Virus record (IMG/VR): IMGVR_UViG_3300032265_001108
Coordinates: 1-63,416 of that record
Direction: 5' to 3' (one strand)
DNA length: 63,416 nt
Source of the DNA: a virus
Lineage: Duplodnaviria; Caudoviricetes
Part shown: piece by piece, positions 15,809 through 58,607 of the stretch
Position numbering within the stretch: position 1 is the stretch's first letter
Layout of the letters: each line of letters opens with the position of its first letter
The notes under the pieces: model-generated
What the model was told of the DNA's origin: nothing
Database searches by the model: none
What the model saw: the letters and a program-made list of their open reading frames with translations, nothing else
Made by a program: the position numbers and the translations under genes

Positions 15809-18271
15809 TTATGGTATTGCCATATTGTTGTTTTGTGTAGACTGAGCCCCAGTTAGAGATATTGAGCCTTTAACCATGTTATTTCCTATCAAAGTGTAGT
15901 TAGCACCACTACTTTCTACGATTGAAAATGCCGATCCACTACTCTGTAGTATATTGCCCACTATCAAATGCTTGCTGGCACCAGATTGTAGGTCAATGTC
16001 CACATTAGTGTTATTATTGAAATTACAGCCACTAATAACAATATCTGTTCCTGCTGATACTAGGCCAAATGTGCTTGCAGCCACTTCACAACCAGAGAAT
16101 ACCAAGCCCTGTACTGTACTTGACACAATGCTTACACCAGTTCCGCCACCAGTACCGCTGGCAAATTCGCATCCAGAAAATTTCCAATGTTGGCAAGCAC
16201 CTGTAGCATATAAACTATTACCACTGCTAGGATCAGTTGTAAAACTACAACCACTTACTATTCCCCAATTTACTGTATCCAAATACAATCCATAGGTTTG
16301 TCCGTTAGTGGTACAGCCCACTAGTCTAGTACCTTCGTCAAAAGCATTGGCATTATCGGTAGCATTGCCTTGGATTTTAAATCCAGCGCCAGTGCCGTTT
16401 TGTACATTACAGTCTACAATATTAGTATCGGTACAGACATTAATGTAGATACCATTTACAACAGACTGGGCCGCTATATTATTCAAGAAATTGTTAGCAG
16501 AATATGCTAGGTATGTTCCTGTGTTAAATGCGCCATTTAAACTAACATTGTTTATTTTTACAGCGTTTAATCTGTGACTTGTATCTGATCCTTGTAATGC
16601 TATACCTGTACAGTTAGTTTTTCCGTTAGTACTTAAGGTTAAATTCTCTATGACAAAATTACTGGCATAGGCAGCTGAATTGTTAAGGTAAGATATTAAA
16701 GTCATCGAGTTGTTGCCAGCAGTTAATGTAACACTGTTAGTTCCAACACCTTTTAATTCTACACCTGGCTTCATAGTCAACCCAGTGTTTATTAAATAGG
16801 TTCCTGGAGGAAATAATACAACCCCAGAACTTAAACTATTGATGGCACTTTGTATAGCAGAGGAAGAATCGCTAGCACCTGTGGCATCAGCGCCGTAATT
16901 AATAATATTCACGGTGTTAGTATACAGAGGCCCAGTTGGCCCCGTAGCACCCTGTGGTCCAGTTGGCCCTGTAGCACCACTTGGTCCTTGTGGTCCAGTT
17001 GCACCCTGTGGTCCAGTTGCACCCTGTGGTCCAGTTGGCCCTGTAGCACCACTCGGTCCCGTAGCACCACTCGGTCCTTGTGGGCCAGTTGGCCCCGCTA
17101 CAGTGCTTGCTGGTCCTTGAGGTCCAGAAGCTCCTGTAGGGCCAGCAACACCTGTTGGTCCTGTTGGTCCAATAATACTTGCACCAGTTGGTCCCGCAAC
17201 ACCAGTTGGTCCTTGAGGTCCAATTGCACCTTGTGGTCCAGTTGGTCCCGCAACACCAGTCGGTCCTTGAGGCCCGCCTGCTGGCCCGCTTGGTCCAGTC
17301 GGTCCATTAATACCGCTTGGTCCAGTTGGTCCTTGAGGCCCGCCTGCTGGTCCGGTTGGCCCTGCAACACCTTGAGGCCCGGTCGGTCCTACAGTGCCTT
17401 GCGGACCAGCAACACCAGTTGGTCCTGTTGGTCCTGTGAACCCTGTGAACCCAATTACTCCTTGTGGACCGCTAGGTCCTTGTGGTCCTTGTGGACCAGC
17501 TACACCCTGTGGACCTTGAGGTCCTACTGCGCCTGTCGGTCCTACTGCGCCTGTCGGTCCTACTGCGCCTGTTGGTCCTTGTGGTCCAGGATTGCCAGTG
17601 TTGCCTGTAATTCCTTGTGGGCCGGTTGGCCCGGTTGGACCGCCTGCTGGACCGCTCGGGCCCTGTGGACCAGGTACAAAACTTGCAGGACCACTCGGGC
17701 CCTGTGGACCAGCATCACCGCGCAGGCCCGGAACACCCTGCGGTCCTTGTGGACCAACAATAGACGGCCCTTGCGGTCCGGCTATACCCTGTGGACCTTG
17801 AGGTCCTACTGCACCTGTCGGTCCTTGTGGTCCGCCTGCTGGGCCAGTCGGGCCAACAATACTTAGACCGCTCGGTCCTTGTGGTCCAATAGCACCCTGG
17901 GGTCCTTGTGGGCCAGTAACACCTTGAGGGCCTACAACACTTAGGCCGCTAGGTCCTTGTGGACCTATTGCACCTTGTGGTCCTTGTGGCCCAGTAAATC
18001 CAGTAAATCCAATTGGTCCTTGTGGACCAGCAGGACCTGTCGGTCCAGGTACATTACTTACACCGCTCGGTCCTTGTGGACCCGTATTACCTGTAGCACC
18101 TGGCGCACCAGCAGGTCCTTGCGGGCCAGTTTGCCCTTTAAAAGAGGAAGTATTAAACTCATTATAAAGTTGCTGAAATGATAATCTTCTTGTTAATTGA
18201 TTATCAACAACTACAAAATATGTTTGATTAGTAGTTGTCGACAGTATAGGTAATTGGTTAATTTGTGGCAT
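15809..18271 (-). CDS. Collagen-like fibre with C-terminal pectate-lyase-like beta-helix (putative depolymerase/receptor-binding protein)
   Basis: ~400 aa of Gly-X-Y, then [25 protein letters not shown]...FPPGTY and parallel beta-helix repeats. Confidence 0.85.
16929..18136 (-). repeat. Collagen Gly-X-Y coding repeat ([12 protein letters not shown])
   Basis: 9-nt-period GC-rich imperfect tandem repeats. Confidence 0.9.
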
Positions 18272-18272
18272 T

Positions 18273-21200
18273 TTAGAATCCTTCTAATGGCTGGTCCTTG
18301 TTATCGGTTAGGCTAAATCCTGTTTCAATTGTTATTTCTTTGTCGCCGCCGTAGTAGTAACTATCTGGTAATTCTGCAGGTCCTGCCTGTAAGAATCTAG
18401 CGGGCTGAGTAGTACTATCCATTAGACTCAATGTGTTTCCTACTGAAATAGAATTGTTCCATACATCCTTAACATTTACCTGCTTTTTAACAATGGTTAA
18501 CTTTATCAAATGATCTGGTCTAACATCTCGATCTTTAAACTGTTCGTCTATATTTAACGTCATTGTACGATGATCAGATGTGCTAATACTAAATTCAGGG
18601 GGAAGATAGTTTAGTCCGTGATAGACAAATCCGTTGATTGCTGAAGCATCACTAGAATTTTCATAAACCCAAACTTGATTTGTACTTGTGACAATGTAGG
18701 CGGTGCCTAGAGAATTTGTTACAGGTAGTAAATCAGATGTTGCAATTGATGCTACAGGTTGATTGAAAATTGGACTATCATAGGCCACAGTCGTATCTTG
18801 ATAGAACATGCCTGTTTTTCTTAAAGGTTTTCCACCGTAGAATACACTTACTTGATCTTCTAAACTAAAAGAGCCACTGCCTGCCAAAGGACGGTATTGT
18901 AGTGTGATACCATCGCTCTTGATACTTTCTCTAGTAGTATTAGCAGTCTGAGGAATTATTACTGTAGCTGTAGTTTGACTGATTGTATAGACCGTAGTAG
19001 CTGTAGAAATATAGGCATTTTGTACCAGAATAGTTTCTGAGAACGGAATACTCTGTGCAGGACTTTGATCAATAACAGTAGTACCTTCTTCGCAATAGAA
19101 ACTAGGACTAGTTCCATAAGTTCCTCTACGAAGCTGGCTTAGTACATTATTGTTTATTTGCCAAAATTCAATTCTTTCTCCATCAACAATAATCACACCT
19201 GGAATTTTCTTAGATATTAAAGGAGCAGTTAATGCACCTGCATCAGCTACATAAATTTCTGTATCCGAATATAACAATGGCTGTGTTAAGTATGTGCTGT
19301 TTTTATAACTCAATCTCTTAAATTGTGTATTATTAAACATGTCATTAAAAATTCTATAGCCTAGAACAGTTGACGCAAGGGCAGTATCAGAAATACTAGT
19401 GATAATAATAGCATTACTATAAGGGTCATCAGTGTTGTAGGTAGGCGGATAAATTCCATTAAAATGGTTAAATGTTAACTGTTGGACAGATTGAGATAGT
19501 TGTATAGTTTTATTATCTTCTAATATAGTATAGTCAACATTGTCTATTAGCGGTATACCGCCGACCTGCACCCATACATAATTCGAGTTTAATATTGTAC
19601 GACTTATGATATATTTTCCTGCTGGATTTTCAACAAATCGTTCGGTTCTAATCATTAGGCTGTCTTGGTCAGTGTAGGTAATTGCTTTAATTTGACAATT
19701 TGAATAGGCCTTCGATAACACTAGCCGATCACCAGATACTGTAAAATCATAGTTAACTATAGTAGGCAGTGCAACTGATGCAACAACATCACCTATACTT
19801 ACTACACCCTGGTTAATGGTAAATGTAGCATTTGCTCCCACAGTAAAATCAATAGTTGGCCTTATCTGGGTTCCATTGACAAAAACTTTTACATTATCAG
19901 AACTTAATCCGCCTAGGCCAAAAACTTGAGGGTCTGTAACAACATTATTATCAATTGGAAATGTTAGACCTGTACTAGTCGTAACCTGATAATAACTTAT
20001 TGCAGGAGGAATCATTCTTCTACGACCAGCACCATCTTCTATTTCTACAATAATATTTGCTTCGGCAGGTCCGATATTGCCCGGAGGTTGTGTTAATATA
20101 AATGTACTTGTGCCCGGAGGCGCTGGATTAAAAACTTGATCATTAATTCTATTATAGTACTGACCGTTAAAACCAAAGAACCATGCTTGTACTGTATTGG
20201 TACCTGTGGATAATCCATAGACATCAACCGCGGCTCGTTTGTTATCTGCATCTGTATAGGTCAATATATAGCCCACTGTACTTACATCGGCCACTGTATT
20301 ATTTGGGTATTGGTCGATCGGCACACCGTTAACTGTCACATAGGCAGTACGAACTGTTGGAGAACCGTCACCTGCTAGACTTCTAATCTGTGCGGTAGTC
20401 CCCCCGGTCACTGTGATTTTTTGGTGATCGATCACACCGGTAGACGAACCCACTTGGCCGCCGCCGACACCAACAATAGTATAACCAGCTAGGCCGGTAT
20501 TAGGTTGTGCAGGAATAATAATTTGATTATTTGCCCAGTCAATATTGAATTGATTAATACTTGTCCAGTTGGTGTTAGTTGTATAGGTAAACAATCGATG
20601 ATCAAATACTAATGTTATGCTATCAACACTTGTAGGAAGAACATTCAACGGAGCAGTTACCTGCGCTCCTGCAGGCACATTAAAGTAGCCTGTGAATATT
20701 GTAGGAGCTCCATTAACATTTTTAGTGTAGACATTTATACCAACACTTTCTGTTGCCTGTCCCGGAACTAGTTCTTCAGGTGCATAGCTAGAATCGGCAG
20801 TATAGAATCCACTACCGTCAATTATAATCTCTGAAGGGTTAACACCTGTTGCACTAGTTAGATAATTGTTAGTTCCAGTAGTCCACCCGCCACTAGCAAT
20901 TGCAGTATCTAGTAAACTGCTATTAGAATCAACGCTCCATATTTCAACTGTTCCAGAATTAACTGTTTGTGTAACTGTCGAACTTACTGTTATAGAAAAC
21001 GCGGCTGTGTTAATCGATGAAACAGTTACATTGGTCAACGAATTAACTACCTGAGCAGTAAACATTGTAGATGTCGATTGCTGACTATTTGAGCTCGCTA
21101 GATTCACTAGTTGCCCGACTGCTATTCCTGTTGTAGTACTTAGAACCAATAGATTAGAACCAGTAACAACAGGTGCTGTTAGGTATGTTCTTTGATAGTA

Positions 21201-24200
21201 ATTAACTTGATCAGCCCATGCACTTTGTCCATAGACAGAATAATAATCATCCCAGTTAGAACTGTAGTTTAGAGATAGTCCTTCGATTGTGGTCTTAGGA
21301 TATTCAATACCAGTCATTAGCTGAGGTAGGTCAATACCTGGCATACCAGAGGTTGCTGTATAATAATTTATAATTCTTTCTGACGCACTTAACAGGTCAA
21401 TATTTTTTGGATATGTAACTTCTAAAATTTGATTCTTATTAGGAATATAATTTAAAAATACTATAGAACTATATTGTTTATTGTAGTCTATATGAGATTT
21501 AGTATAGTAGGTGATTGTATAGTCTGCATTTAACACTAGCTCACCGTCCAATTTGACTGTAATCTTAGATTTGTCAGTTCCTGCAAGCCATGATAATTCA
21601 TATGTGTTGGCGGTGCCGTTACAAACAATTCTGTCGTCTGCTATAATATTCCCGATTTCGCTTGTTCTAGAAATTCGATCGAATTTAATTCCAATTTTAT
21701 TTGTTCTAACCTTCTCGTTCTTTAGTTGTACAGAAACGATTGCCGGAGTAAGAGAAGTATTCCCGCCACCGATTAGTCTAACGATAGGAGCTGTTTGATA
21801 ATTATTTCCCGGATTAGTAACCGCTATTTGCACAACTGCACTAGAACTAATATAGGCCACAGCAGTAGCACCAGAGCCAGTATCTCCTGGAACAGCCTCA
21901 ATAACCACAGTTGGAGGTACTAAGTATCCGGATCCCCCGTTACCTATAGATATACTGCCAACCTGGAAGTTGTGATTATCTGTCCACGATTTCCAAGGGT
22001 ATACATTGGTTAATGTATTGCCAACATCGACTATTTCAAATTTACCATCTGCTTTATTATAGTAGGACGGTAAATCAAAGTCAGTTATAAAACTCTGGCT
22101 ATTGTCTAAGGTAGTATGGTTAGTTGTGAAGTTTCTTATCTGTGTATGATAAGGTTTTACTTCTTCTAGATACTGTTGATAATAGGTGCTGTCTTGTAAT
22201 TTAAAGATAGGACGCTGATCTAATGCACCAGCATAATTTGTCACACTGATGAATGATGTTTTAAATGCCCAGTCTAATAGTTTCTGTTCGGACAATGCAT
22301 ACTTAACTGCCTTGAAGAAGAACAGATTCCAATTAATTTTTAAGTCATTAACAAATATGTCGTTCTTTAATGCAGTAAGAATATATCTTAATTCTAAGTC
22401 CGGAGTCTGATTAAACAGAGTCTGATCGTATGTATTCTTATCATCAAAATTGTAAGGATTAGATTTTGTATTCCAGATAGCATCTGATATCTGTATAGTA
22501 CCTCGCTGACTATATACCAAATCAAATAGATTACTAAATGTTCCACTGCCGCCGACTCGAGATACTATAATATATCTGCCATCACCCGAGTTTTTAATTT
22601 TAACATATTGACCGACTGTGAGGTCTGGTAATTCGTCTAGCTCGTAGACATAGTCAACTGTATGGGTATAGTCCTTATAGGGATTGTAGTCAGCGGATAC
22701 CCAATCTACATAGTTCCAATATCTGGTTGTATTGTACTGTTGAGTATGTTCTCTTACCCAGGTACTTGATTTTATGTCGTATACAAACTGTGTCCAACTA
22801 CCGTTGTATGTTGAATCTGTAAGTACAATAACTGTGTAAGAGCGTGCTACTAGATTGGGAGCGGTAATGTATCCGTTGCCTGCATTTTCAATTTTGCATG
22901 ATACTATTCTTCCGCTTGAATCTATTTCAGTTGAAATAACTGCCGGAGTTGATGCGTGACCGATTATTGTTACTGTCGGCGCAATTTTATAACCAAATCC
23001 AGCATCATCGATAATAACACTTCGTATTTTACCATCTGCAATCGTACATCTTAATTGAGGTAGCTTAAACAATGTAGTATCAATTAATAGTAGAGCCTCA
23101 TTGTCTTCGATGATTTGGTCGTACTGGTTACTATAAATGCTAGGAATAGTTTCTTGAGCATTTAGATTTGAAAAGTTATAATTACCTGTTATCTGATTTG
23201 CCAACAATATACTATTTGTAAATTCCAGCAAATTACGCAGGGCTTCTTTCCTATCTTTGAAAAGAGTTTGTTGGGGACGAATACCGACACCATATTTCAC
23301 ACGATCCGATAATTTTGGATCAGGTACAGGCGTTCCTAGGGTGTCATGCCCCATCAGACTATCAATTAATTTTTTCTCTAGTAGGGTATTTGGAACACTG
23401 TCAGCTTTTCCTTCTTGCAACAATAACCATTCAGTATGTTTAGGAATAGTATTATCGATGCTGTCTGTAGCAATATTGAAATTTATTCTGTTGCCTACTA
23501 GTTCTGTTCCTACATTTGCTAATGCAACTGCATCCTTAGAAAGTATTGCCGCATATTTTATACCGTAGGCCGTAGGATCTGCAATAACAGAGGCTACCTG
23601 ATAAGCACTGATACGGCGATTCTTAGTTGCCGGGACTGTAATTTTATTTTTTACCCAGAAATAATAATAGTTGTTAAATGAGTTTGTAACTGCATTGAAT
23701 ACCTGTTTAACTGAGATTACAGAATTATCAGGAAATTTTGGTTGCCCACTAACACCCCTAGTTAGACCGGCAGGAGTATCTGCCTGACTGCTCCATTCGC
23801 TAGGTAATAAATCTGATCCTACCCATTCATAAACATCTATAGTTGCACCCGGGAAAACTGATCCCCAATTATTTTTTCTGTAGGTTAAGTCGCCTTGTTC
23901 GTACCATGTATATTTTACGGTGCTTAGATCCCACCATAGTTGACCAACATGTTCATCTAACCAATTAGAGTTAGAATCGTTGACGGTACCTGCTACTCCG
24001 ATAGAATAAACTGCTGGATCAAATGCAGATTTAAAAGTTAACTCTTGTTCTGCTAGACCAGAAATTTTTCCTTTGATAGGATCAATAATTTCAAGATATT
24101 CTAATATATCTTCATTATAGGTATCAATTAGTACAGCTCTTTGAATTGTATCTACAGTAACCAAATCTTCTTGCTGTCTTAGTAAACTTAGACCTATAGA

Positions 24201-27200
24201 CGCAGTAGATTGATTATTAAATTCATAGAAAGAACCTACATAAGTCGAACTTGAAAATGCTGGAGCTCCTACATATATAGTGTTGTATTGATCAATAGCA
24301 ACACTATAACCAAAACTTGTACCTTCTGCAGGAGTAGCCGGAGACAATTGCTCAGATAACACAAATCTGTTGGCCTGTCTATTATAGATATAGACAGTAC
24401 CATACTGTGCTATCTCTCCATAGAAATATGTAGACCCGCTATCAAATGTTGTTGCACTAGCATTAGGAGCACTTAATATGTTGTTGACATAGGTACCAAA
24501 TTTAGGTTCCGGAACTGAGTAGGTATCAACTGTGTTCTTTGTACTCTTTGAATTACCAACTGATGCAATTGCTATTACATTTGATAATGTGTTAACTGAG
24601 ATATCTGTAGCAAATCTCATTCCCATATCGGCAAATGGACTTGATATAACGGAATTCAATACATAAGATCCGTTTGTGTTTGTATAGACTGCAACACCAC
24701 CTAGAGATTTATTTGTATTGATACTATCTGGTGCAGTAACAAACAAATATGCACCGTCAGCTGACATGACTAACGAATCTCCAAATCTTGCACTGCCGCT
24801 AAATGGTGAAATTAATTTTTGGGAGTATGTTATACTTTTTCCTACATAGATACATACTGTACCGGAGTTAGTTGCATAGCCCGGCGCACTAATTGCAATA
24901 GTGGTTGCATCGCTCGAACCTGCAATAGCATACCCCCATTGACTGCCTATGTTTAAAGAAGTAGGTGCTGTAATACTGCTGATATAAGTAGCAGTAACTA
25001 CTGATGTAGAGTCGACACTATAAGCATAGACAGCCCCAGTACCCAGCAGTTCTGTTCCTGGAGCCCCTACTAACATTAATTTTGTACTGGTATTCTTTTG
25101 TACAAATAAAGAAGATCCAAATCTTTGATTAGATCCCGCAACAGGGCTTGCCAATACAAACTGAGGTACTTCGGTATATAGTACTTCATTGATACTGCTA
25201 ATCTTGACAAGACCTTCCGACACACTAGTATTTGCAGTTCCTGCACCTGTAGAATATCGTCGAGCACCAGTTGGCGGATTTGTAGTTATCGCTTTGACAC
25301 CGCCAGCAGCCGGAGCCCCGGCAAAAATTAATCCGTAGGTCGATGTGCTAAAAGGATATTCATCATAGACCATTGCATGACCAAATTCTGTTACCCCCGG
25401 AGTATGATAAATTTTAGACACATCGCTATTGTTTAGCTGATACTCAAATTGTTTTTGTGAAGCATTATTAATTTTTTTGTAAACAGAAATCTTGCCATAC
25501 TCGCCGCTGTTAATATAATTTGGAGCATTGACTGTAAAAATACGATCACTGTTAACACCTTTACTAATGTTCCATCCTAGTTGTTGTGTTTGATGGCTAA
25601 CTGGAGCATACTGTTTAACATCTTGATAGCTGTTAATTTTTTCATAAACTGACCAACGACCGGAAGCATTGTTATCAACCCAAATTTTAGTACCGATCGG
25701 CCATGCCAGTATTTCAGTATCCGATGGAAGATTATCAAAATCTTTAAATCGCATACTTCTGAAAGTATACAATCTACCTGGGGTAGGCAAAGGTTGATCA
25801 ACAATAACTGTTAATTTTGTAGCTACAGTAAATTGGCTTAGTGTAGGTGTTGCTTGTACAACATAAACACCATCGACTTGGTTGTTGAAGTTAACAATAG
25901 ATACTACTTGCCCCGGTGATAAATTATGGAAATGATTTGTATAGAAAGTCATCTGACTGCCAACTAGCGTCAATGATATTCCTGTAATACCGGCATTTGA
26001 CAGAGTGTATCGTTGGACATCCCAATCACCGTTTGATTTAAAGCCTAACCAAATTATATCGCCCTCCATGATCTGCCCGTTGTTGGCAATGTCAAGTAGA
26101 CTATTTTCGTTATAGGCTGTTGCAGTTACATCGTCAAGACGAGCATACCCTGCATTGATCAATTTTAAATTAGATTCAGTATCGCTATCTACTGCAAAAG
26201 TAGAAGTTGATTTATAATCCACAGGCGTGATTACTAGGTCATTAGGCGTACCATAGACTGTCAAATCATTTGGTTTGATAGGTCTAGTATCTACAAAATT
26301 TATTACTTGAGGATTTTCAATAAAGGTTCCCTCTTGCAGAGGAAGTTCCAATTCTTGGTAAGTCGAATAAGAACCGTAATAGCCTACACGGAAAGCCCAT
26401 TCTTCATTATAATCCAACTGCCCCTGTTGATTAAACAATGTAGCTTTGGATAATTTGCTGATAGAATTCTTAGTACCTTTTTCTTTAATAAATCCTTGAT
26501 AGAATTTATATTGAGCAATTGGGTTTGTGAATATATTGTTTAGATAGACACGAGGCGTATAACCAGTTAAATGCTGGGCCATCTTTTGTTGACCGGCATC
26601 AAAATTATCAATATCTAAACTATAAAAATCTTCAAACTGATTGATTTTATAATCAAAGTTCGGTAATAACCCTGCAACAGGTTTTGATCCTAGCAATGAC
26701 CATGCATTAAAATCAAATGTAACTGCACCCGGCAGATTTCTAATTGCGGAATAATAGTTGCCAGAATAACGAACTATATCGCCGGCTGCATAATCAGTAT
26801 ACTGTTTCCAATTAGAAATAACTGCGGTATCGTAGACAAAACCTGGACTAAAATAATCACCTTCCCAGTTGGCTGTTCTGAAACCCGACAGCTTCATGCG
26901 CTGTTGTCTATATCCTGTTTCTATATCATATATAACATCGTTGAAGATTGTCTTGTTGTTAAAAACAATTGCATGTTCTTTCTGTACACTATTCAATCTT
27001 GCAAAATAGATTCCGTCAGTTGTATTAACTGTTAGGATCGTGCATACTCCGTCAATTCTCGATACACTTAGATTATTTTGAGGATAAGATGTTCCGTCTG
27101 CTTTTAATATACTATATTCGTAAAAGCTATCAAATATATTATCTACAACAGACTGGTTAAATTGATATTTTAATCGATCGGCGAACGGACTTAGTGTAAT

Positions 27201-30200
27201 AACACTACCAGTGGCCCAGTTTTGTAAATTCCAATATAAGAATTCCTGTGCCGAGAAGTCCCAATTAATTACAGATTGTAGGTCCGCGTTGAATTCATCA
27301 AATATAAATCCTTGATCAGTTAACCATTTTCCATAGCCAATAATTAAATCATAAACCTGTTGAATATTTTCAAACTCTGTTCCATAAGGTACTCGAACCA
27401 CCTCAGAAGAAAACTGTTCAGCTCGTTGAACCACTGCGCCACCCACTGTTGGCAATGCTGGCAGCATTTGGAAGTAATTAGAATTAAATGTGCTTCCAGA
27501 TTGGTGACTTACTTTTACCTTATAAAAATTATTACCATAGGCTACAATCTGTCCTACTTGATAGAAATTGCCTGTAACCGCTGCCTTGGCAGTAGTGGTA
27601 TCTGCATCTGATAATCCAGTCGAACCCCCAGATGCGCTAGGGGCCCATGTAACATAAGATTCACTAATTCCGCCCACTGTTAATACAGGAGTAGCGGAAT
27701 TTCTTATCGACGGGTACATGCTAAAATAAGGAGCAGTTTGATCATATCCCTTGACCGTAAACTTGCCATTTACTTTTTGTACTACAATACCGGATATTCC
27801 TACAGATTTAACAGGGTTGCTGACATTTAAGATTACATTATAATTTTCCAGCGGCAACACGGCACCGGGACTAACTGTAGTAGGTTCATAGGCATCGATG
27901 ATAATCTGCATTTCTGTTTTGCTGATAAAGCCGCCCACTTTGTAAAACAGATTAACATCAATGTTTCTTATATCCTGTATCAGCTCGCTAACATAGTTTG
28001 AAGTTCTTTGATTGCCAATTTCTGTTACAAATACACCATACCCACTGGTTAATGTTGTTCCTGTGTTTGATGCAACTGTTATATTTTTTAAATTTAAAAA
28101 TTCATTATGGTTACCGTAACTCCATTGCCCTGCAATGTTTACATTCATACGACTTGTGTCGTAGAATAGTGCAGAGTATTTTGCCGGAAAGGCTAGAGCC
28201 AAGAATTTTTGTACAGCAAATGGCCAGTAGCTACTACGGCGCCAGGCTGTTTCGGCAGGACCTTGATCGCCAAATATCCACCCTTGTCTAGAATTAAACG
28301 CAGTAACATTAGTTACTAAAGAAATAGTAGGATCAACTAGATTACCTTGAGAATCAACTGGAAGAATCTTACTTAATCCTGGACGGGCATAGTTAGTATT
28401 AACGACACCTTGTACTAATCCTAGTTCTAGATCATTCCATAAAATATCATTACCGGATGTATAAGGAGCAGGACCGTATTGATTTGTCCACCAGTCTGGC
28501 TGGTTGGTAAATCCTAACATCTCCCAAGGGTGTGTGTGAGGTCGATCGGTATCGTAGAAATATTTGTACAAAGCTCTCCAATATCCCGACACTGGTTGGC
28601 TAATTGACGGGCTATATGATCCTTGATAATTCCATGTAAACGGATTCGCGTCGTCGACTACTGTATTAATAGTAAAGTCAATGCCGTAGAATCCTGCCCA
28701 TTTGATAAAATCACTTTGTAGTATTCCATTAACCTCACTGAGTGTATATGGAGTATTTCTAAATGCACCCGGTTGTAAACTCTTGATATCAAATAAATGT
28801 TCTTTGTAACCTACTTTGATATTGTTGTAAACACGGCGTTCGTATTCTAGTATAATTAAATCTCTAAAATCACCGTAGGCACGCATTAGACTACCATCGT
28901 GACCTTGAATAACAGTAACGGGTACTTCTGCATAGGTATCATCAAGATAAATTGCTGGAACAAATGCAGGGTACAATCCTAATTTTGTAGGAGTAGGAGG
29001 AATAAAACTACCGCGAGTATCAGGATACTCTTTTACAACGATTTGATCACCAACAGAAATTTTTGTTTTAACATGTATCTGTGAATCAATTTTTACAAAA
29101 TCAAAATCAACTCCCACAGTTAATTGTATTCCGTTTAAGTATACCAATACAGATTGTAAATTTAATTCTGTAAGATCATAACTTGCCGACATTGGATAGT
29201 AGACATTGCGTACATCAGTAACAGTAAAAGTTCTAACAGTATGATCTGTTCCATAGGCTATCATGTCCGATAGGTAGTAAGGAGAAGACGAATTTTTAAC
29301 TTGATTAATCTCTAGCATCGCTTGATCTAGTGCAGCCACCGGATCAAATTGATCAGTCAGTTGAGAAATTTTAGCAAGCAGGGCCAGTTTAAATTGATTG
29401 TATTGATTAGCAACTTTTGTAATAGCATCAACAACACTATGCTCTTTTTTGCCTACAAATAATTGTGCAAATGGCAGAGGTGCGGCATTTGAAATAAGTC
29501 TAGTTCCATAGCTTGAGATATTGCCCAGGTCTCTTAAATTGTTATCTCCTGGAAACATTCCTACAAATCCCGGAGCCCTTTTAACCATCGAGCTAACATG
29601 GTCTTGTAATTCTGAAAAAGTAAATGAGGCGATAGGCCCATTTAATGGATTGTTTGTTAAACTTAGAGGAGGCTCGTAGTATTTTGATCCATCTTCTGCT
29701 GTTAATAAAGGAATTGCATAAGGTTCAGCAGTTTGCCATACATTGGCAAATGTGTCTCCTAACGAATTTGAAAACTTACAATAGGCCGTTGATGTCGGAA
29801 CACTGGTGATAGAAGTTCCTTCAGTTATTGTAATGCTATCTGTCATGAAATAATTTTCAAACAAATAACTGCCAATCCCTGCACTGTTTTTGTATTTTAA
29901 AGAAAAGCCTAGCACCGAGTCATAAATTGTGCCAGATGCATAGCCAAATAGTTTATTGCCTTTAAAATCGCTTAGATAAAAGTTAGCATCCGAATAGCTG
30001 TTGCCTTGATCATCGAAAAGATCAAATAACGGAGGTGTATTCAAAGTATGATGCTGTTGAGCAAATTGCCATGTATCGCCATTGTACCACCATTCTGTTC
30101 CTTTGTTGGTATCTCCGAGATTAACTCCAGTAACCGATTGAGCCATTGGAACATCTACAGGAACTAGTTGTAGTCTAGGAATATTTTTAACAAATAGATA

Positions 30201-31637
30201 GTTAACTTGATATACTTTTCCACGAACGTCAGCATCTGTATCTGCATTAAAAATTACACGATGCCCTTGTTGTAGCAATACTCCATCAACATAGTAACCG
30301 GCAGATCCTTCAACAATGCTAAATGCATCTAGTGTTTTATTGTCAATAAGATCCACATTACCAATTGCTATCGTACCATAATTATATAATTTTAAATCTG
30401 CATTAAATTCTACGATAGGACGCTTTGCTCTTTTATCAGCTGGATAGGAAGGAATGGTGCCATTTTTAGTAGCACTGATTGCAATAATATCTTTATGGAT
30501 CCAGCGATTATATCGAGACCAAGGATTTAGATCTTGGCTCGAACGATTAATAGTGATATATTCCGGAGTTAACGGAAGTGTTTTAAAATTATCAAACGGA
30601 TATTCATCAAATGGATTAGCATCAAAATTTTCATCGTAGGTAGATGCAATAGTTTCTGGTGTTAACAATCTATCATATTCTACCAATCGTATTGCAGTTC
30701 CGACACCTTCTACAAAAAATTCTTTATTTTGATAAGATGCAGGTGTTACTTGACCTGCAAACTTTATTTTCATGCCATTTGAAAGCGTAACACCTGTACC
30801 TGAAACATAATTCTTTTTACCAATTACATCGAGCTCTACATTAATAAAACTATTCTGGTCTACAGATTTAACTACGAATTGACCCTGAGTAAGTTGTTGA
30901 TCTCCGCTGATATAAAATAATGTATCAGGTGTGTTATTATCTATGACTATAGTAACAGTTCCCGTAGATACTCCATTATTAGTAACACCAATATTGTATA
31001 GATCATACGGTCCGATAGACGGAGCAGTTTTAATAAAGAACTTATGCGCAGAACTTACATCAAAGTGATAGGTATTGCCTCTATATAAAAATATATTAGG
31101 ATCGCTAGTCAATCCGTCTGGGGTAAAGATAAATGCCGAACCAACTTCACTATCACGAACCAGATAGGTACTGTTAGTGTCTTTTAATTGTCCTTCAATA
31201 ACGATTGTCTCTGGTCCTGTAGTTAACCAGTAGTAGTCTTGATAGTTAACTAACTTGTCCCAGTCAATGTGAGGGTTATATGAATAAAATTCTGATCTAA
31301 ATAATCTGTCAAGATTAGAAGTATTGCCACCTTTGATAGTAATTTCATTGATTAAATCATCTAGTGCAACGGTGTCTGTTACTACGCCCGAGCTGTTGTT
31401 TACTATTAGTGCAGGTTCTAGCTGATAATCTTTTCTTAATGGTAAAGATTCTTTTATATAAACATCAGTCGATGCATTATATGTAGGTGTCGATGTAGTA
31501 CCGATATAGCCGTCAATTCGTTCTAGTTGTGGTTTTTGAATTAACTGATCTAAAGTACCGTGCAGGAACTTGGCATTTTTATCAGTTTGTAAAAACTCTG
31601 GTAGTAGATTAACTGAACTATTATTTTTATTAACCAT
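18273..31637 (-). CDS. Giant (4454 aa) baseplate wedge-like structural protein (gp7 position)
   Basis: Directly downstream of the gp6-like gene; N-terminal LLPEF; EVKPYHT; GxGYxxAP repeats; propeller and CBM-like segments. Confidence 0.7.
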
Positions 31638-42109: not shown

Positions 42110-42165
42110 ATAGTTCCTTAGTACTGTATTTACCCGCTAAATAAAATGCGTACTTAATACCGTGG

Positions 42166-42193
42166 TTGACATAGCCAATTTTTGTGTTATACT
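42166..42193 (+). promoter_or_regulatory. Sigma70-type promoter for the late sigma gene
   Basis: TTGACA (42166-42171), 16 nt, TGn-TATACT (42188-42193). Confidence 0.65.
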
Positions 42194-42221
42194 CACTAAT
42201 AAGGAAAATAATAATAATAAG

Positions 42222-43145
42222 ATGATGATCATACCAACTACCCGAAAGGTCAAGTACTTAAACAACAGAGATTTATTAGCAGAAATACATCGTTCAAAAT
42301 GCTCGTTCTCTAGTTTTACTAAACCAGAATATATGCAGTACGATTTAATTTTGCCAGATGTTAGCAAAATAAATGTACGAACTATCGCAGAAGCTAAACG
42401 CAATAGAGCTAAAAGGATAGGGTTAATTGCATTTGGAACTGCGAGGGTTGCAGGCGATAAGAAAATTAAACTATCTGAATGTACTCCGGACTATAAAACT
42501 GTAGGTAAAACCGAAGTTGTGATTAGAGTAATGTCCTTTGACCACATTCCGCTTGCCCCCGGAAGAAAGAAAACTACCAAGACCAAAGCCGACAGCTATG
42601 AAAAAGTAAATTTTCCACCGTTTCAACATTGGAAGTATGACGACGCTGATCCTGATTCTCTAATATGTGTAGGTAAGAGTCACTGGAAAGGCCCGGTAGA
42701 TACTGGAATTTTTTCTAAAGATCATGGTCGAATTACAGAAAATCTAGGCAGGATGTACATCAAATTATCTGAACGATATGCACAGCGTAGCAACTGGCGT
42801 GGCTATACCTACATTGAAGAAATGAAGGGACAGGCTATTCTACAGCTAAGCCAAATTGGACTACAATTCGATGAATCAAAATCAGAAAATCCGTTTGCCT
42901 ACTACACCGCGGCGGTGACAAATTCGTTTACTCGTATTCTAAATATTGAAAAGAAGAGTCAAAATATTCGTGACGACCTACTTGAAGAAGCAGGGTTGAC
43001 TCCAAGTTTAACTCGTCAAAACAGTCAAGAGTATGCTGAAGAAATTGCTCGTCAAGCAGAACTATATAAGAATATGCGCATGCCCAAGAGCGAAGAAGAT
43101 CCAGAAGAAGATATAGAAGAAGAAGATAACACCAAAGAGGTTTGA
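42222..43145 (+). CDS. Late-transcription sigma factor (T4 gp55-like); probable start ATG 42222
   Basis: KYLNNRDLL, NW.GYTY.EEM, FD..KS.NPFAYYT....NSF.R....EKK; directly upstream of gp47/gp46 as in T4. Confidence 0.8.
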   Translation: MMIIPTTRKVKYLNNRDLLAEIHRSKCSFSSFTKPEYMQYDLILPDVSKINVRTIAEAKRNRAKRIGLIAFGTARVAGDKKIKLSECTPDYKTVGKTEVVIRVMSFDHIPLAPGRKKTTKTKADSYEKVNFPPFQHWKYDDADPDSLICVGKSHWKGPVDTGIFSKDHGRITENLGRMYIKLSERYAQRSNWRGYTYIEEMKGQAILQLSQIGLQFDESKSENPFAYYTAAVTNSFTRILNIEKKSQNIRDDLLEEAGLTPSLTRQNSQEYAEEIARQAELYKNMRMPKSEEDPEEDIEEEDNTKEV

Positions 43146-45984: not shown

Positions 45985-46285
45985 GCTAAACAAGTATAAG
46001 GAAACATATAATCAAATGATTATATTGTTAACCGAGTATCATAACAGACATCAAGAGTTTCTCAACAATGTCAGTTATGCGGGCGGAGTAGATTTACGCA
46101 GGACAATGAAAAAAATCATTGCCGCGGATAGAGAACTCATGAAGGGCACTAAAGCAGTACACGATGAGATGATTAAAAATCTCAAAGACATGCGCAGGGC
46201 CAAGCGAGAGAAAAATAGAGAAGTAAAGAAGAAAAAATTAAATGACATGGCTTTATCAAAATCAAGTAGTGGAGACTCTTCCTGA
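45971..46285 (+). CDS. Small basic helical hypothetical protein
   Basis: 104-aa ORF with Lys/Arg-rich C-terminus, overlapping both neighbours. Confidence 0.6.
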   Translation: MLTPELNKYKETYNQMIILLTEYHNRHQEFLNNVSYAGGVDLRRTMKKIIAADRELMKGTKAVHDEMIKNLKDMRRAKREKNREVKKKKLNDMALSKSSSGDSS

Positions 46286-46670
46286 GGATTGTATAGGCTT
46301 TGTTTACATTATCACTAACAATACTACAAATAGAAAATATATTGGCAAAAAATTAGCAAAATTTAGTAAAACGACCTACAAGACTGTAAAGTTAAAGAAC
46401 GGCACGAAGAAAAAGAAGAAAATCAGAAGTAAAATAGATAGTGACTGGCAAGAATATTATGGATCTAACATTGAATTAAACAAAGATGTTGAACAGTTAG
46501 GCAAAGACAACTTCACTAGAGAAATACTGTATTATTGCAAAAGCAAATCAGAATGTAGTTACATTGAGGCCCGCGAACAATTCGACCGCAAAGTACTAGA
46601 ATCTACAGACTACTATAATGGACATATACAGGTCCGTGTACATGGCTCCCACATAATCAAGAAAATTTAG
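46242..46670 (+). CDS. Stand-alone GIY-YIG family endonuclease
   Basis: GFVYIITN..TNRKYIGKK, YYGS, F.REIL, E...Q, YYN. Confidence 0.85.
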   Translation: MTWLYQNQVVETLPEDCIGFVYIITNNTTNRKYIGKKLAKFSKTTYKTVKLKNGTKKKKKIRSKIDSDWQEYYGSNIELNKDVEQLGKDNFTREILYYCKSKSECSYIEAREQFDRKVLESTDYYNGHIQVRVHGSHIIKKI

Positions 46671-46677
46671 TTTACTT

Positions 46678-47102
46678 AAACGGTAAAAAGCAAGCGCAGG
46701 CTAATTTCGTGCGCCCTAAACCTGGACCTCGGGTCACAGGGATGGAAATCTCTCGCCGTTAAGAGTACTCAATCAGTATCCTTTACAGGACCAAGATCGC
46801 AAATTCGCCGCGGTTTGATTGTTTGAAGATATAGAAAAAGGCAAGAAGGAAGGGAGAAAAACCCTGGATATACAAATGCGTTAGTGTGCATCTGTATATT
46901 GCCGTTGAATGAAGACAGAGCTCGTGGTACCGGTCAACCGCCACTGTAACGCTCTAACACTAAGTGACTGTTCGAACTCGGATAATGTCATTTTCGCCCT
47001 GAGCGGGCGAAGTGTGACCAAAGAATCTGGATAATACTTAAACATCTTCGATGTAAATATGCTCTGAGCGTGAGCGAAAGAGCAAACGAACGCAGTTCGT
47101 TT
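46678..47102 (+). ncRNA. Candidate large structured non-coding RNA (~430 nt)
   Basis: About ten hand-found stems, several needing G-U pairs on the + strand, plus a 7-bp loop/downstream pseudoknot (46881-46887 with 46957-46963); the largest gene-free gap in the window. Confidence 0.65.
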
Positions 47103-47109
47103 ATAAATA
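47102..47109 (+). promoter_or_regulatory. T4-type late promoter
   Basis: Exact TATAAATA 30 nt upstream of ATG 47140. Confidence 0.7.
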
Positions 47110-47139
47110 AAAGATAACAATCTTTAAGGAATTCCTTGT

Positions 47140-47874
47140 ATGCTTATTAATGAACTAATATTAGAAAATCAACAGTTAGATGAACTGAGCTTTGCCGGAG
47201 TAGGTAAAGGGATCGGACAGGTTGCATCTGGCGTTGGACAAGCTGTAGGTGGTATTAAAGGTGCATACCAGGGTGTTAAACAACGATACTCTCAAGGTAA
47301 ACAACAGGCACAACAAGGCGCCTATAATGCTGTAACAGGTGGCGGACAGCAACAACCTGCACCTGCTCAGAATACTCAAGCAACTACTCCAGCAAATGGA
47401 GCCGCACCTAGTGCTACTGCACAGCCGGCAGCAACTAGTGCTCCTTCTCAAAATACACAGCAAGCAAATCCTCAAGATGCAGGCGACGGTAGGATTGAAC
47501 CAACACCGTCGCCTGAACCTGCGCAAGGACAACAACCGGCTGCAACAACACCCCCATCTGGTCAAGCTACTACACCTCCGGCAGCGGGTGCTCCGGCAGC
47601 GGGTGCTCCGGCAGCGGGTGCTCCGGCTGAAGAACCGCCAGCCGCACCAGATGCGACACAAGCACCAGCGGGCAACACCCGTGCTAGAATGGGTGCTCCA
47701 GAAGGACGCAAGGCTGTAGATCAAGCGGTCTCTACAGTAAAACAGGTGCGTAGTGATCGTAGAGCACAGGTAGTTAACTACGGAAAACAACAATTTGACG
47801 CACTAGCAGGTGCGGCCCCTACAGCAGAAAGTCGTGTAGGCTATCGTAGTCGTTTCTTAGATATGGATATTTAA
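47140..47874 (+). CDS. Low-complexity Ala/Pro/Gln-rich protein, probable internal head protein
   Basis: N-terminal LINE/ILE/LDE protease-type motifs, late promoter, disordered centre. Confidence 0.65.
   Translation: MLINELILENQQLDELSFAGVGKGIGQVASGVGQAVGGIKGAYQGVKQRYSQGKQQAQQGAYNAVTGGGQQQPAPAQNTQATTPANGAAPSATAQPAATSAPSQNTQQANPQDAGDGRIEPTPSPEPAQGQQPAATTPPSGQATTPPAAGAPAAGAPAAGAPAEEPPAAPDATQAPAGNTRARMGAPEGRKAVDQAVSTVKQVRSDRRAQVVNYGKQQFDALAGAAPTAESRVGYRSRFLDMDI
47576..47627 (+). repeat. 15-bp tandem repeat, 3.5 copies (PAAGA)
   Basis: CTCCGGCAGCGGGTG repeated perfectly three times. Confidence 0.9.
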
Positions 47875-53161: not shown

Positions 53162-53179
53162 TCTATAAATAACACTACT

Positions 53180-53425
53180 ATGTTATTAAGAGAATTTGTT
53201 TACTTTGATAAAGATCATGCTGATCCACAGGATGATAACCGCTATCTTAGCCAAAATGACACAAGCGTTTTGCGTCAGAAAGACCTAAGAAAGACTCGTT
53301 TGACTCTAGAAATGATTAATGAACTGCGCAAAGCAGGCGATGCTCGTGAGAAAGAAAAGAAAGAAGAGTTAGGGTTAGTTAGAAAAATGTATGCGGCGCC
53401 ACCGCCCGATGCGGCTGCTCAATAA
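53180..53425 (+). CDS. Small head-module protein
   Basis: 81-aa ORF between the portal and core genes; TATAAATA at 53164-53171. Confidence 0.7.
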   Translation: MLLREFVYFDKDHADPQDDNRYLSQNDTSVLRQKDLRKTRLTLEMINELRKAGDAREKEKKEELGLVRKMYAAPPPDAAAQ

Positions 53426-53607
53426 CACATACTTTAATATCTTTGATTAAAAACTAAATATTTTTAACAAAGAATATGTCAAAGTAGAATAAAATTCTAT
53501 CGTACGAGTCGAAAACCGTCTGTTTTCGGCCTATTTCCAACATTGATTTTACCAACTGTGTAAATACAACACAGCCTTGCCGCAACCACATTAAGGAGAA
53601 TAACGCA

Positions 53608-57619: not shown

Positions 57620-57698
57620 GTTAAATACAGTGTCTAGATTATTATGCAGTACCCTCTGCGTACGGCCTAGAACGCCATTTAAATAAAGGAGAAACAAA

Positions 57699-58607
57699 AT
57701 GGGACGCCCAATTAAAGCCAAATTTTTTGGTAACTTAAACAACGAACAATTTAAAAATGTCGGTATCAATTCTGGTATTGGCGGAGAAGGTGTTGCTAGC
57801 GTTAGCGTTAGCAATAGTGGCACTAATTACTCTAAAGGTGCTACAATAACATTCTCAACACCACAAGAGCCAACTGGTCGTAGAGCAACTGGTCATGCCA
57901 CATTCACATCTAACGGAACTGGTGCATTTGGAATAACTGCGGTTGTTATCGATGATGCTGGTACAGGTTATACATCTGCCCCGTCAGCGTCAGCAGCAGG
58001 TGCGGCAACTGTTAATACTGTTGGCACGTCAACAAATGCAAGCTATACACTAACAAACATGACAAGTGTTGCTGGAATTTATGAAGGTATGTTGGCATCC
58101 GCACCATACGGCATGCAAGCTAATAACTATGTTACTGCTGTTGGAACAAATTCTGTTACATTATTTAAAACAATGAACTTATCAACAGCTTCATTAGCAA
58201 TTGCGTTTAGTAGTGCAGGTTCTGGTTTTGCTTATAGTGTTACATTAACAGCATCTAACTACAACGCTCTTAAAGTCAATGCATACCTATTGGCAAGAAA
58301 TGGCGGTACTGGTGCTAAACTTGCTGACATTGTTAAACAAGAAGCAAGCCATCGTTATCTAGTTAAGACTAGCGAAGGCATTGGTCAATGCCGCCTAGTA
58401 AACACAAGTACACTAACAGCTGGTCAAATGAACATTGTTGCTACAGACTTCAATGGTAGCACATACTATGTTACAAAACTAACAGCACACAAGGCAGTTC
58501 TATCACAGTCAACAGCTAGTGGTAGCTTCTTGATTGCCAATAGTCATGCTACAGGATGGACCTTAGGTGCCGCAACTGGTACAGTTGTTACACTTGCTAA
58601 TGTTTAA
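57699..58607 (+). CDS. Virion structural protein (possible head decoration)
   Basis: Ser/Thr/Gly-rich beta protein with GxxY repeats, strong SD, follows the capsid gene. Confidence 0.65.
   Translation: MGRPIKAKFFGNLNNEQFKNVGINSGIGGEGVASVSVSNSGTNYSKGATITFSTPQEPTGRRATGHATFTSNGTGAFGITAVVIDDAGTGYTSAPSASAAGAATVNTVGTSTNASYTLTNMTSVAGIYEGMLASAPYGMQANNYVTAVGTNSVTLFKTMNLSTASLAIAFSSAGSGFAYSVTLTASNYNALKVNAYLLARNGGTGAKLADIVKQEASHRYLVKTSEGIGQCRLVNTSTLTAGQMNIVATDFNGSTYYVTKLTAHKAVLSQSTASGSFLIANSHATGWTLGAATGTVVTLANV

Follow-up and report, generated by a model that had tools for sequence, protein, structure and literature searches.

What is encoded in the gap at positions 46671–47139 of a 63,416-base IMG/VR virus entry (completeness estimate 18%; hereafter the window, meaning the whole stretch of DNA analysed), where a 142-aa ORF (46242–46670, +) is followed by a 244-aa ORF (47140–47874, +)? 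A sequence-only reading had proposed a new, large, pseudoknotted non-coding RNA in what it took for the only large intergenic gap. The gap is not the only one, as 53162–53607, with an 81-aa ORF in it, is likewise open when only ORFs of 90 aa or more are listed. The window has T4-like gene content, encoding a gp55-type late sigma factor, SbcD- and SbcC-like proteins (gp47 and gp46, respectively), a SegE-type GIY-YIG protein, a baseplate hub and a gp20 portal, and the order around the locus runs gp47, gp46, small ORFs, the GIY-YIG gene, the RNA, a variable gene and the baseplate hub on the opposite strand. Elsewhere in the window, the sole GC-rich kilobase (17001–18000, GC 0.606) lies within 15809–18271 (−), the 820-aa protein of which contains collagen triple-helix repeats, encoded by the GC peak, together with a pectate-lyase-like beta helix, and looks like a tail fibre or depolymerase. 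The neighbouring stretch 18273–31637 (−) is a single 4,454-aa ORF, for which a weak carbohydrate-binding-module match was found and nothing else.

A search with cmscan against Rfam 15 placed the 5′ part of the putative RNA in an existing family. RF01718 (Polynucleobacter-1) matched 46689–46824 (+) with 117.6 bits against a gathering score of 37 (E 8.3e-27) over the full length of the model (positions 1–141 of 141), and two relatives of the locus also gave a full match, with 113.3 bits. The sequence-only reading had seen no known family here and had named such a match beforehand as the outcome that would remove the novelty; this is what happened for 46689–46824, while the 3′ ∼280 nt indeed match no Rfam family. 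When 46500–47300 was scanned at E up to 10, only one chance match (E 9.3) appeared besides RF01718, and RNase P RNA, group I and II introns, self-cleaving ribozymes, 6S, GOLLD, ROOL, OLE and HEARO gave no covariance model match. ARAGORN finds neither tRNA nor tmRNA in the window; the sequence-only reading had been unable to match the sequence to tRNA, tmRNA, RNase P or intron consensus. A separate match, to freshwater-2 RNA (RF02980; 53.9 bits, gathering score 49.9), lies at 57624–57701 (+), just upstream of the ORF at 57699–58607.

Two IMG/VR loci with identical gene order have a gap ∼95% identical to that of the window. Viral contigs were scanned with a 14-mer taken from the 5′ domain, which yielded 120 loci; the 5′ part was matched in 52 loci besides the window's own. 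The 3′ part directly adjoins it by profile match in 46 of those loci, the 3′ core was found by covariance model at 44–52 bits in three loci, and in the 5 remaining loci with a 5′ part the sequence ends at the locus edge before the 3′ part would be reached. We therefore reject Polynucleobacter-1 as a stand-alone motif of ∼140 nt, all 52 other motif loci carrying the 3′ core except the 5 ended by the locus edge; the RF01718 motif is a domain of a larger element. With a second scan, using a pattern from the 3′ part, the two scans together gave 84 full-length loci, or 75 unique sequences including the window. Some 24 further loci (22 unique) match the 3′ half only and have a different 5′ domain, forming a second subfamily, of which ten loci gave no match in an Rfam scan at gathering scores. 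As this subfamily keeps the 3′ core behind another 5′ domain, the RF01718 motif is one of at least two alternative 5′ domains and the 3′ core the common part. Judged from the sequences collected, the 3′ core (∼280 nt) is thus the more widely shared part of the element. Since exact motifs were used to fetch the loci, a fetching motif is invariant partly by construction; the stretch GGUACCGG...ACCGCC (46926–46942) is nevertheless invariant or nearly so in an alignment (A2) whose members came from the other, different motif. The gap had no match among 50,697 isolate phage records in a 'distant' blastn search, and in a 14-mer scan of genome contigs none of the loci fetched among the matches listed fits the element profile, a result that is uninformative on cellular genomes. 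A published set of 8,495 short viral RNA candidates from IMG/VR (29–151 nt; PMC10690425) may include pieces of the 3′ core. As far as Rfam and literature searches reach, both the core and the identity rule set out below are undescribed.

The carriers of the RNA are T4-like jumbo phage records, and a model of the 3′ core finds exactly one copy per record in five records of 192–355 kb, two of which are 99–100% complete jumbo phages. The related jumbo phages G001 (345 kb) and G006 (355 kb) have 28 and 14 tRNA genes, respectively, and ARAGORN calls one 'permuted tmRNA' in each. Comparison with individual relatives shows the RNA to be conserved as much as its coding neighbours, or more. Between the window and relative L002 the RNA is 94–96% identical at the nucleotide level, above the 81–92% of the flanking genes (gp46 81%, GIY-YIG gene 92%, hub 89%). 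With relative L116, identity is 95% in the 3′ domain, 85% in the 5′ domain, and 73%, 79% and 72% in gp46, the GIY-YIG gene and the hub, respectively.

The fold was examined in A2, which comprises 32 unique sequences 65–95% identical to the window. RNAalifold returned 82 pairs, of which 43 changed on both sides, and a mutual-information (MI) scan of the 75 unique sequences recovered the helices of the sequence-only reading together with three pseudoknots (Table 1). In the resulting 112-pair model 90.1% of cells are paired in A2, compared with 35–43% when partners are slid by 1–3 columns; 64 pairs changed on both sides, compared with 12–25 for slid partners, and in 500 shuffles no measure ever came up to its observed value. 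The RF01718 helices P1, P2, P4 and P4b are paired in 91–100% of cells. In an alignment of 42 sequences spanning both subfamilies (A4), P7, P8 and P9 hold, with 89.5% of cells paired, although the PKC columns are partly misaligned there.

All the stems listed by the sequence-only reading are present at their coordinates, and most show compensatory change in the relatives: GCGCA/TGCGC, CCTGGACC/GGTC-A-CAGG, CAATCA/TGATTG, GATCGC/GCGGTT, AGGG/CCCT, the long hairpin at 46867–46900, AGAGC-GTGG/CCAC-GCTCT, TTCGCCC/GGGCGAA, TGCTCT/AGAGCA and AAACGAAC/GTTCGTTT. For ACATC/GATGT this is true of the inner part alone, and of TCCT/AGGA the Rfam consensus includes only CC/GG. The stem GTCA/TGAC (46987–90/47015–18) is not supported, being 74% paired with no pair changed on both sides; the outer pairs of GGCAA/TTGCC are also unsupported in A2, where GGC/GCC alone is maintained and barely varies. 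A GNRA tetraloop in P11 was considered and rejected, as a regular expression finds it in only 27 of 97 sequences, and a long-range RNAalifold pairing of the 5′ ACGG with the P12 region is better explained by PKA. Within the small hairpin of the 5′ domain, columns 46779 and 46791 co-vary without pairing (U...C with loop UUUACA, or C...U with loop GAAA), which suggests two alternative loop modules.

The strand can be read from the wobble pairs. In six well-aligned helices (P1, P4b, P6, PKB, P7 and P8a) G.U occurs 412 times and A.C 16 times; the excess indicates that selection acts on the + strand RNA and bears out the argument, made earlier from one sequence, that G-U wobble favours an RNA over a DNA cruciform. 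Folding energy is a poorer guide, being modestly better than that of shuffled sequences on both strands (z = −2.72 on + and −3.12 on −) and not distinguishing them. Neither is the gap a protein-coding gene, since its ORFs are unconserved and every frame has stops in 68/75 (46881–47120, −) and 67/75 (46909–47034, +) sequences. A conserved structured RNA at 46679–47102 (+) is therefore confirmed at the level of comparative sequence analysis. The 'new large ncRNA' first proposed is indeed large, pseudoknotted, encoded on the + strand and non-coding; 'undescribed' applies to its 3′ two thirds only, the 5′ third being RF01718.

Table 1. Coordinates of the RNA element, its parts and its context in the window. 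'Both sides' gives pairs in which both bases changed.
Feature	Position	Strand	Evidence or remark
gp55-like late sigma factor gene	42162–43145		encoded in the window
c1, 142-aa GIY-YIG protein (Pfam SegE_GIY-YIG)	46242–46670	+	upstream neighbour; context only
Whole conserved RNA element, about 424 nt	46679–47102	+	nhmmer and CM matches in relatives
5′ domain, RF01718	46689–46824	+	CM score and covariation
PKA	AACGGT 46679–84/GCCGTT 46755–60 (P3 loop)	+	MI pairs 46680/46759, 46682/46757
P1	46694–98/46710–14	+	both sides 3/5
P2	46721–28/46732–40	+	both sides 3/8
P3	46750–53/46762–65	+	RF01718 domain helix
P4	46770–75/46816–21	+	both sides 4/6
P4b	46795–800/46810–15	+	both sides 4/6
P5 hairpin (AGGG/CCCT)	46851–46865	+	both sides 4/4
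P6 long hairpin	46867–46900 (46869–79/46888–98)	+	loop GUUAGYGU conserved; both sides 10/11, 93.2% paired
PKB	UUAGUGU 46881–87 (loop)/ACACUAA 46957–63	+	MI pairs 46885/46959, 46886/46958 paired in every sequence
PKC	UUGA 46905–08/UCAA 46934–37 (P8 loop)	+	MI pairs 46906/36, 46907/35, 46908/34
P7, enclosing P8	46917–46955 (P7 46917–21/46951–55)	+	A2 and A4 counts
P8	46924–28/46940–44 and 46932–33/46938–39	+	with near-invariant GGUACCGG...ACCGCC
Twin strand U1	46964–46987	+	GUGAC, linker, [GAA]-CUC-[GGAUAAU]-G
P9 hairpin between twin strands	46992–47012	+	both sides 3/7 in A2, 4/8 in A4
Twin strand U2	47012–47036	+	GUGUGAC, linker, [GAA]-UCU-[GGAUAAU]-A
P10	47042–54	+	3′ hairpin, MI/covariation
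P11	47060–65/47079–84, inner GC/GC	+	3′ hairpin, MI/covariation
P12	47085–91/47095–101	+	misaligned in A2; supported by MI pairs 47085/101, 47088/98
TATAAATA	47102–47109	+	directly after P12; likely late promoter of next gene, not RNA part

The pseudoknot noticed in the single sequence, TTAGTGT with ACACTAA (PKB), has 99.1% of its cells paired and both bases changed in 4 of 7 pairs, and the covariation points to two further pseudoknots, PKA and PKC. PKA, of which the 5′ strand lies outside the Rfam model, is 89.7% paired (3/6 pairs changed on both sides); PKC is 99% paired in A2 (2/3 pairs changed on both sides) and occurs in A4 as UCAU/AUGA, UCAG/CUGA, UUGC/GCAA and UCGU/ACGA. The repeated GCCGTT remarked on earlier finds its place here, both copies lying in pseudoknot strands, one in PKA and the other in PKC.

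The most unusual feature of the element is a second repeat that had been pointed out, GGATAAT, which is real and belongs to two longer units, U1 and U2, one on each side of P9. Each unit consists of RUGAC, a linker, [NNA], CUC or UCU, and a 7-mer, with CUC in U1 and UCU in U2 as the constant difference between them. The 7-mers of U1 and U2 are the same in 75/75 sequences. Eight forms of the 7-mer occur, with at least 27 switches between them on a tree of the remaining RNA sequence; the U1/U2 identity expected per column if columns were independent is 0.53–0.81. The rule also holds in the 22 sequences of the second subfamily, in two outliers that have other 7-mers U1 still equals U2, and in one locus (L161) a new U2 copy has been inserted beside a decayed old one. 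Each variable twin column couples to its twin column only, and the spacing between the units varies from 47 to 60 nt. Some of the switches may be exchanges of a whole 49-nt cassette between phages instead of new mutation. One element (L130:8241–8700) lacks 63 nt, namely the PKB 3′ strand, U1 and P9; its 5′ domain is divergent too, and it may be a decayed copy. We do not count the deletion as evidence for recombination between twin strands, as its ends do not coincide with them.

The twin 7-mers are variable and unpaired, and identity in place of complementarity is outside what ordinary RNA structure predicts. An MI scan finds no third column within the RNA coupled to the twin columns, and no column of the c1 gene, the upstream GIY-YIG neighbour, is coupled to the twin bases; co-variation of these bases with the c1 protein is below that of the controls gp46 and hub, and with the neighbour proteins c3 and c6 no higher than the controls. 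At no position was the reverse-complement 7-mer conserved across 97 loci, complements of the 13-mers occur in the window at chance level, and the motif AYYYGGATAAT is not enriched in five records. Across three whole jumbo-phage records with differing 7-mers (G001, G006 and G008) the only orthologous motif sites are U1 and U2 themselves, and the three whole phage records contain no complementary target for the 7-mers. Not even a G/A or C/U difference between U1 and U2 was seen, which speaks against simple wobble-tolerant RNA–RNA pairing; the strands may instead be read by DNA or protein or by a host partner, or be the product of a copying process. Readings by translation were rejected, as no ORF runs into U1 and a mini-ORF at U2 is not kept in the second subfamily.

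Taken together, our preferred reading, to which we give a probability of roughly one half, is that 46679–47102 (+) is a single-copy gene for a highly folded non-coding RNA of a T4-like jumbo phage clade from lakes, which acts in trans with twin working strands; our best guess is a trans-acting RNA or RNP core offering two recognition strands. Such an RNA would comprise two independently folding domains, Polynucleobacter-1 with one pseudoknot at the 5′ end and a 3′ core of P5–P12, two pseudoknots and the near-invariant P8 stretch. It would probably be transcribed rightward with the early/middle gp47-gp46-GIY-YIG block, end before the late promoter of the next gene, and act as RNA or RNP core, not as the leader of a neighbouring gene. 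Its working surface would include two single strands, CUC plus 7-mer and UCU plus the same 7-mer, flanking P9 and presumably read by the same kind of partner, in two copies or at two sites. A partner specificity that differs between phage lineages would then force the twin strands to stay identical. Strict identity is hard to square with wobble-tolerant RNA–RNA pairing, and the twins could be kept alike with no shared partner if phages copied one strand onto the other (gene conversion) or exchanged the 49-nt cassette. Further points against the preferred reading are that no site resembling a terminator was called past P12 on the + strand and that no partner of the twin strands was found in the searches above. 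A bolder proposal, rather unlikely in our estimate, would make the 3′ core a new phage RNA machine, its twin 'address' strands (CUC plus 7-mer and UCU plus 7-mer) a programmable twin guide or substrate for nucleic acid of the host or of a competing phage, with copying or very strong selection keeping the match and Polynucleobacter-1 as an exchangeable accessory domain.

The two domains could instead be two adjacent RNAs, Polynucleobacter-1 a small RNA or cis element in its own right and the 3′ part a separate RNA behind it, an arrangement we consider possible though unlikely. No convincing pairing between the 5′ and 3′ domains was found, the top cross-domain MI pairs being non-Watson-Crick; the 5′ domain is replaced by another in the second subfamily, and conservation is mosaic, as the comparison with L116 shows. 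Against two RNAs, wherever a locus is long enough to include both parts they adjoin, joined by a short A-rich linker, and no promoter- or terminator-like site was called between them.

Position next to the GIY-YIG gene raises another prospect, that of a cis-acting 3′ UTR element of this gene or operon (for stability, termination or feedback), or else a leader of the downstream gene. The RNA begins 9 nt past the stop codon of the GIY-YIG gene and on its strand, 54/75 loci have a c1-family ORF no more than 4 kb upstream, and the table row for Polynucleobacter-1 in the 2010 survey (Weinberg et al., PMC2864571) reads 'y' for RNA, 'y' for cis-regulatory and '?' for switch, marking the motif as likely cis-regulatory. 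A cis role is improbable all the same, as about 424 nt with three pseudoknots far exceed the needs of known UTR elements, about one locus in five has a gene other than c1 upstream, and other genes intervene between c1 and the RNA in 8 loci sampled through c1. As for a leader, different loci have different downstream genes, some of them on the opposite strand. Between the RNA and the next gene of the window, moreover, stands TATAAATA, which we take to be the T4 late-promoter consensus and of which 6 of the 7 copies in the window sit 8–31 nt upstream of a same-strand ORF start, a late-promoter reading also backed by the gp55-like sigma factor gene of the window; its position suggests that the RNA is probably not the leader of that gene. 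The downstream ORF itself (47140–47874, +) is Pro/Ala-rich with repeats (AGAP...), has unrelated genes in its place at other loci, and in lake contigs shows in-frame length variants of 3–18 bases and replaced stretches. These contigs, from runs marked as probably DNA, extend over the genes flanking the RNA as well, and thus carry no signal of transcript ends, strand or level.

The same neighbour could instead be served in trans, the RNA being a partner (guide, activator or inhibitor) of the 142-aa nuclease, for which HEARO RNA with IscB would be a precedent. Indeed, c1 consists of a GIY-YIG catalytic domain alone, into which a Lys-rich beta-hairpin is inserted, and lacks a DNA-binding domain (model mean pLDDT 88.8); its best fold match is the I-TevI catalytic domain, and it is 72–85% identical across loci. 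Among PDB sequences it has no T4 EndoII-like match and a weak match to a 'mobile intron protein' (E 0.013). Proteins of its family (PF19835) are often annotated 'NAD synthetase', which looks like an annotation error carried from PHROG 447. When loci were sampled through the c1 protein alone (the best 80 of at least 586), in 69 of the 80 the c1 gene was followed, on its own strand, by the 3′ core, a further one had a 5′ part ended by the locus edge and three had too little flank, so that the RNA is present in 70/77 loci with enough flank. The other 7/77 have no RNA within 1.5 kb, and none was found in 5 of these seven records searched whole, which are fragments. The family is also widespread among T4-like cyanophages and further phages, with members in 495 isolate phage records; in two complete genomes, those of Methylophilales phage Melnitz-3 and Synechococcus phage S-SRM01, c1 is followed by short gaps only and the 3′ core is absent throughout. 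The protein therefore does not need the RNA, and their adjacency may be gene order inherited within one phage clade. Obligate pairing of nuclease and guide RNA of the IscB/TnpB omega-RNA kind is rejected on the same 7/77 loci and two complete isolate genomes; the variable twin bases show no co-variation with the c1 protein above that of the controls and none with c1 DNA columns, and a partnership with c1 is altogether very doubtful.

The twin units could also be explained by a processing cassette, in which U1 and U2 are cleavage sites releasing a small RNA of ∼50 nt around P9, or by an anti-defence decoy mimicking a type III antitoxin or other host RNA. Two like tandem units (RUGAC, linker, YYY plus 7-mer, hairpin), the many 7-mer variants with frequent switching, as an arms race would give, and the renewed U2 copy of L161 are all in keeping with this. 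PADLOC, however, finds no ToxN-like or other defence-type neighbour, returning only a weak 'homing endonuclease' match for c1, and the large conserved fold around the units would be left unexplained; we hold either version to be very unlikely. A type III antitoxin RNA proper is rejected, there being only two partly alike units inside a larger fold and no defence-type neighbour. To a DNA-level element (origin, iterons, packaging site or cruciform) we give hardly any credence: identical direct repeats recall iterons bound by one protein and the − strand folds in silico as well as the + strand, but the G.U excess and pseudoknot covariation mark selection on the + strand RNA, and the variable U1–U2 spacing is unlike that of phased protein sites.

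The preferred reading, of a trans-acting RNA with twin strands, can be set beside several known systems. The first is Polynucleobacter-1 itself, which has the same helices and, going by the survey's table row, which places the motif in 'Burkholderiales, fresh water/estuary', a freshwater setting in common with our element; by that row its carriers are Burkholderiales, and here they are jumbo phage records (PMC2864571). Only about one third of the conserved element falls within the Rfam model, in PKA a hairpin loop of the model pairs with bases that lie 5′ of it, and the ∼280-nt 3′ core always follows the motif in the sampled loci, the same core being found behind another 5′ domain as well. An orphan motif of ∼140 nt since 2010 is thereby redrawn as the 5′ domain of an RNA three times larger.

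HEARO RNA and the omega-RNA of IscB resemble our element in being large structured RNAs beside the gene of a small nuclease without its own target-recognition domain. Here the nuclease is GIY-YIG and occurs without the RNA in complete isolate genomes, and the RNA lies 3′ of the gene, with no variable guide at its end and no transposon ends.

For the twin strands the closest parallels are paired sites read by one partner, such as boxB of lambdoid nutL and nutR with N protein, the take-off and landing codons of T4 gene 60, and ToxI type III repeats. As in these, two short RNA copies are identical within a phage and differ between phages; no N-like or ToxN-like gene was identified here. T4 gene 60 has two matched GGA codons ∼50 nt apart, with a stop codon and hairpin after the first, and our element reads GGA-UAA, hairpin P9, and GGA-UAA again 49 nt on. 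In the latter, however, no ORF leads into U1 (an in-frame stop lies 4 codons upstream), the second copy also has a stop after it, and the identity extends over 7 to 10 or more nt, not 3.

In overall build the element resembles GOLLD, ROOL, OLE and raiA, the large ornate non-coding RNAs of bacteria and phages (PMC12286853). It shares with them a length of several hundred nt, many helices and pseudoknots, and conserved unpaired bases; it is smaller, and has no Rfam match to them at E up to 10. GOLLD has likewise been found in lake samples and phages. To our knowledge, identically changing twin strands have no counterpart in any of the four. The element seems to be fixed, as a gene in single copy, in uncultured freshwater jumbo phages, is conserved at least like their recombination and baseplate genes, and joins the few large, multiply pseudoknotted RNAs without an assigned role. 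Earlier members of that set proved to be ribozymes or RNP cores, and in this one the twin strands offer a concrete experimental handle on what reads them.
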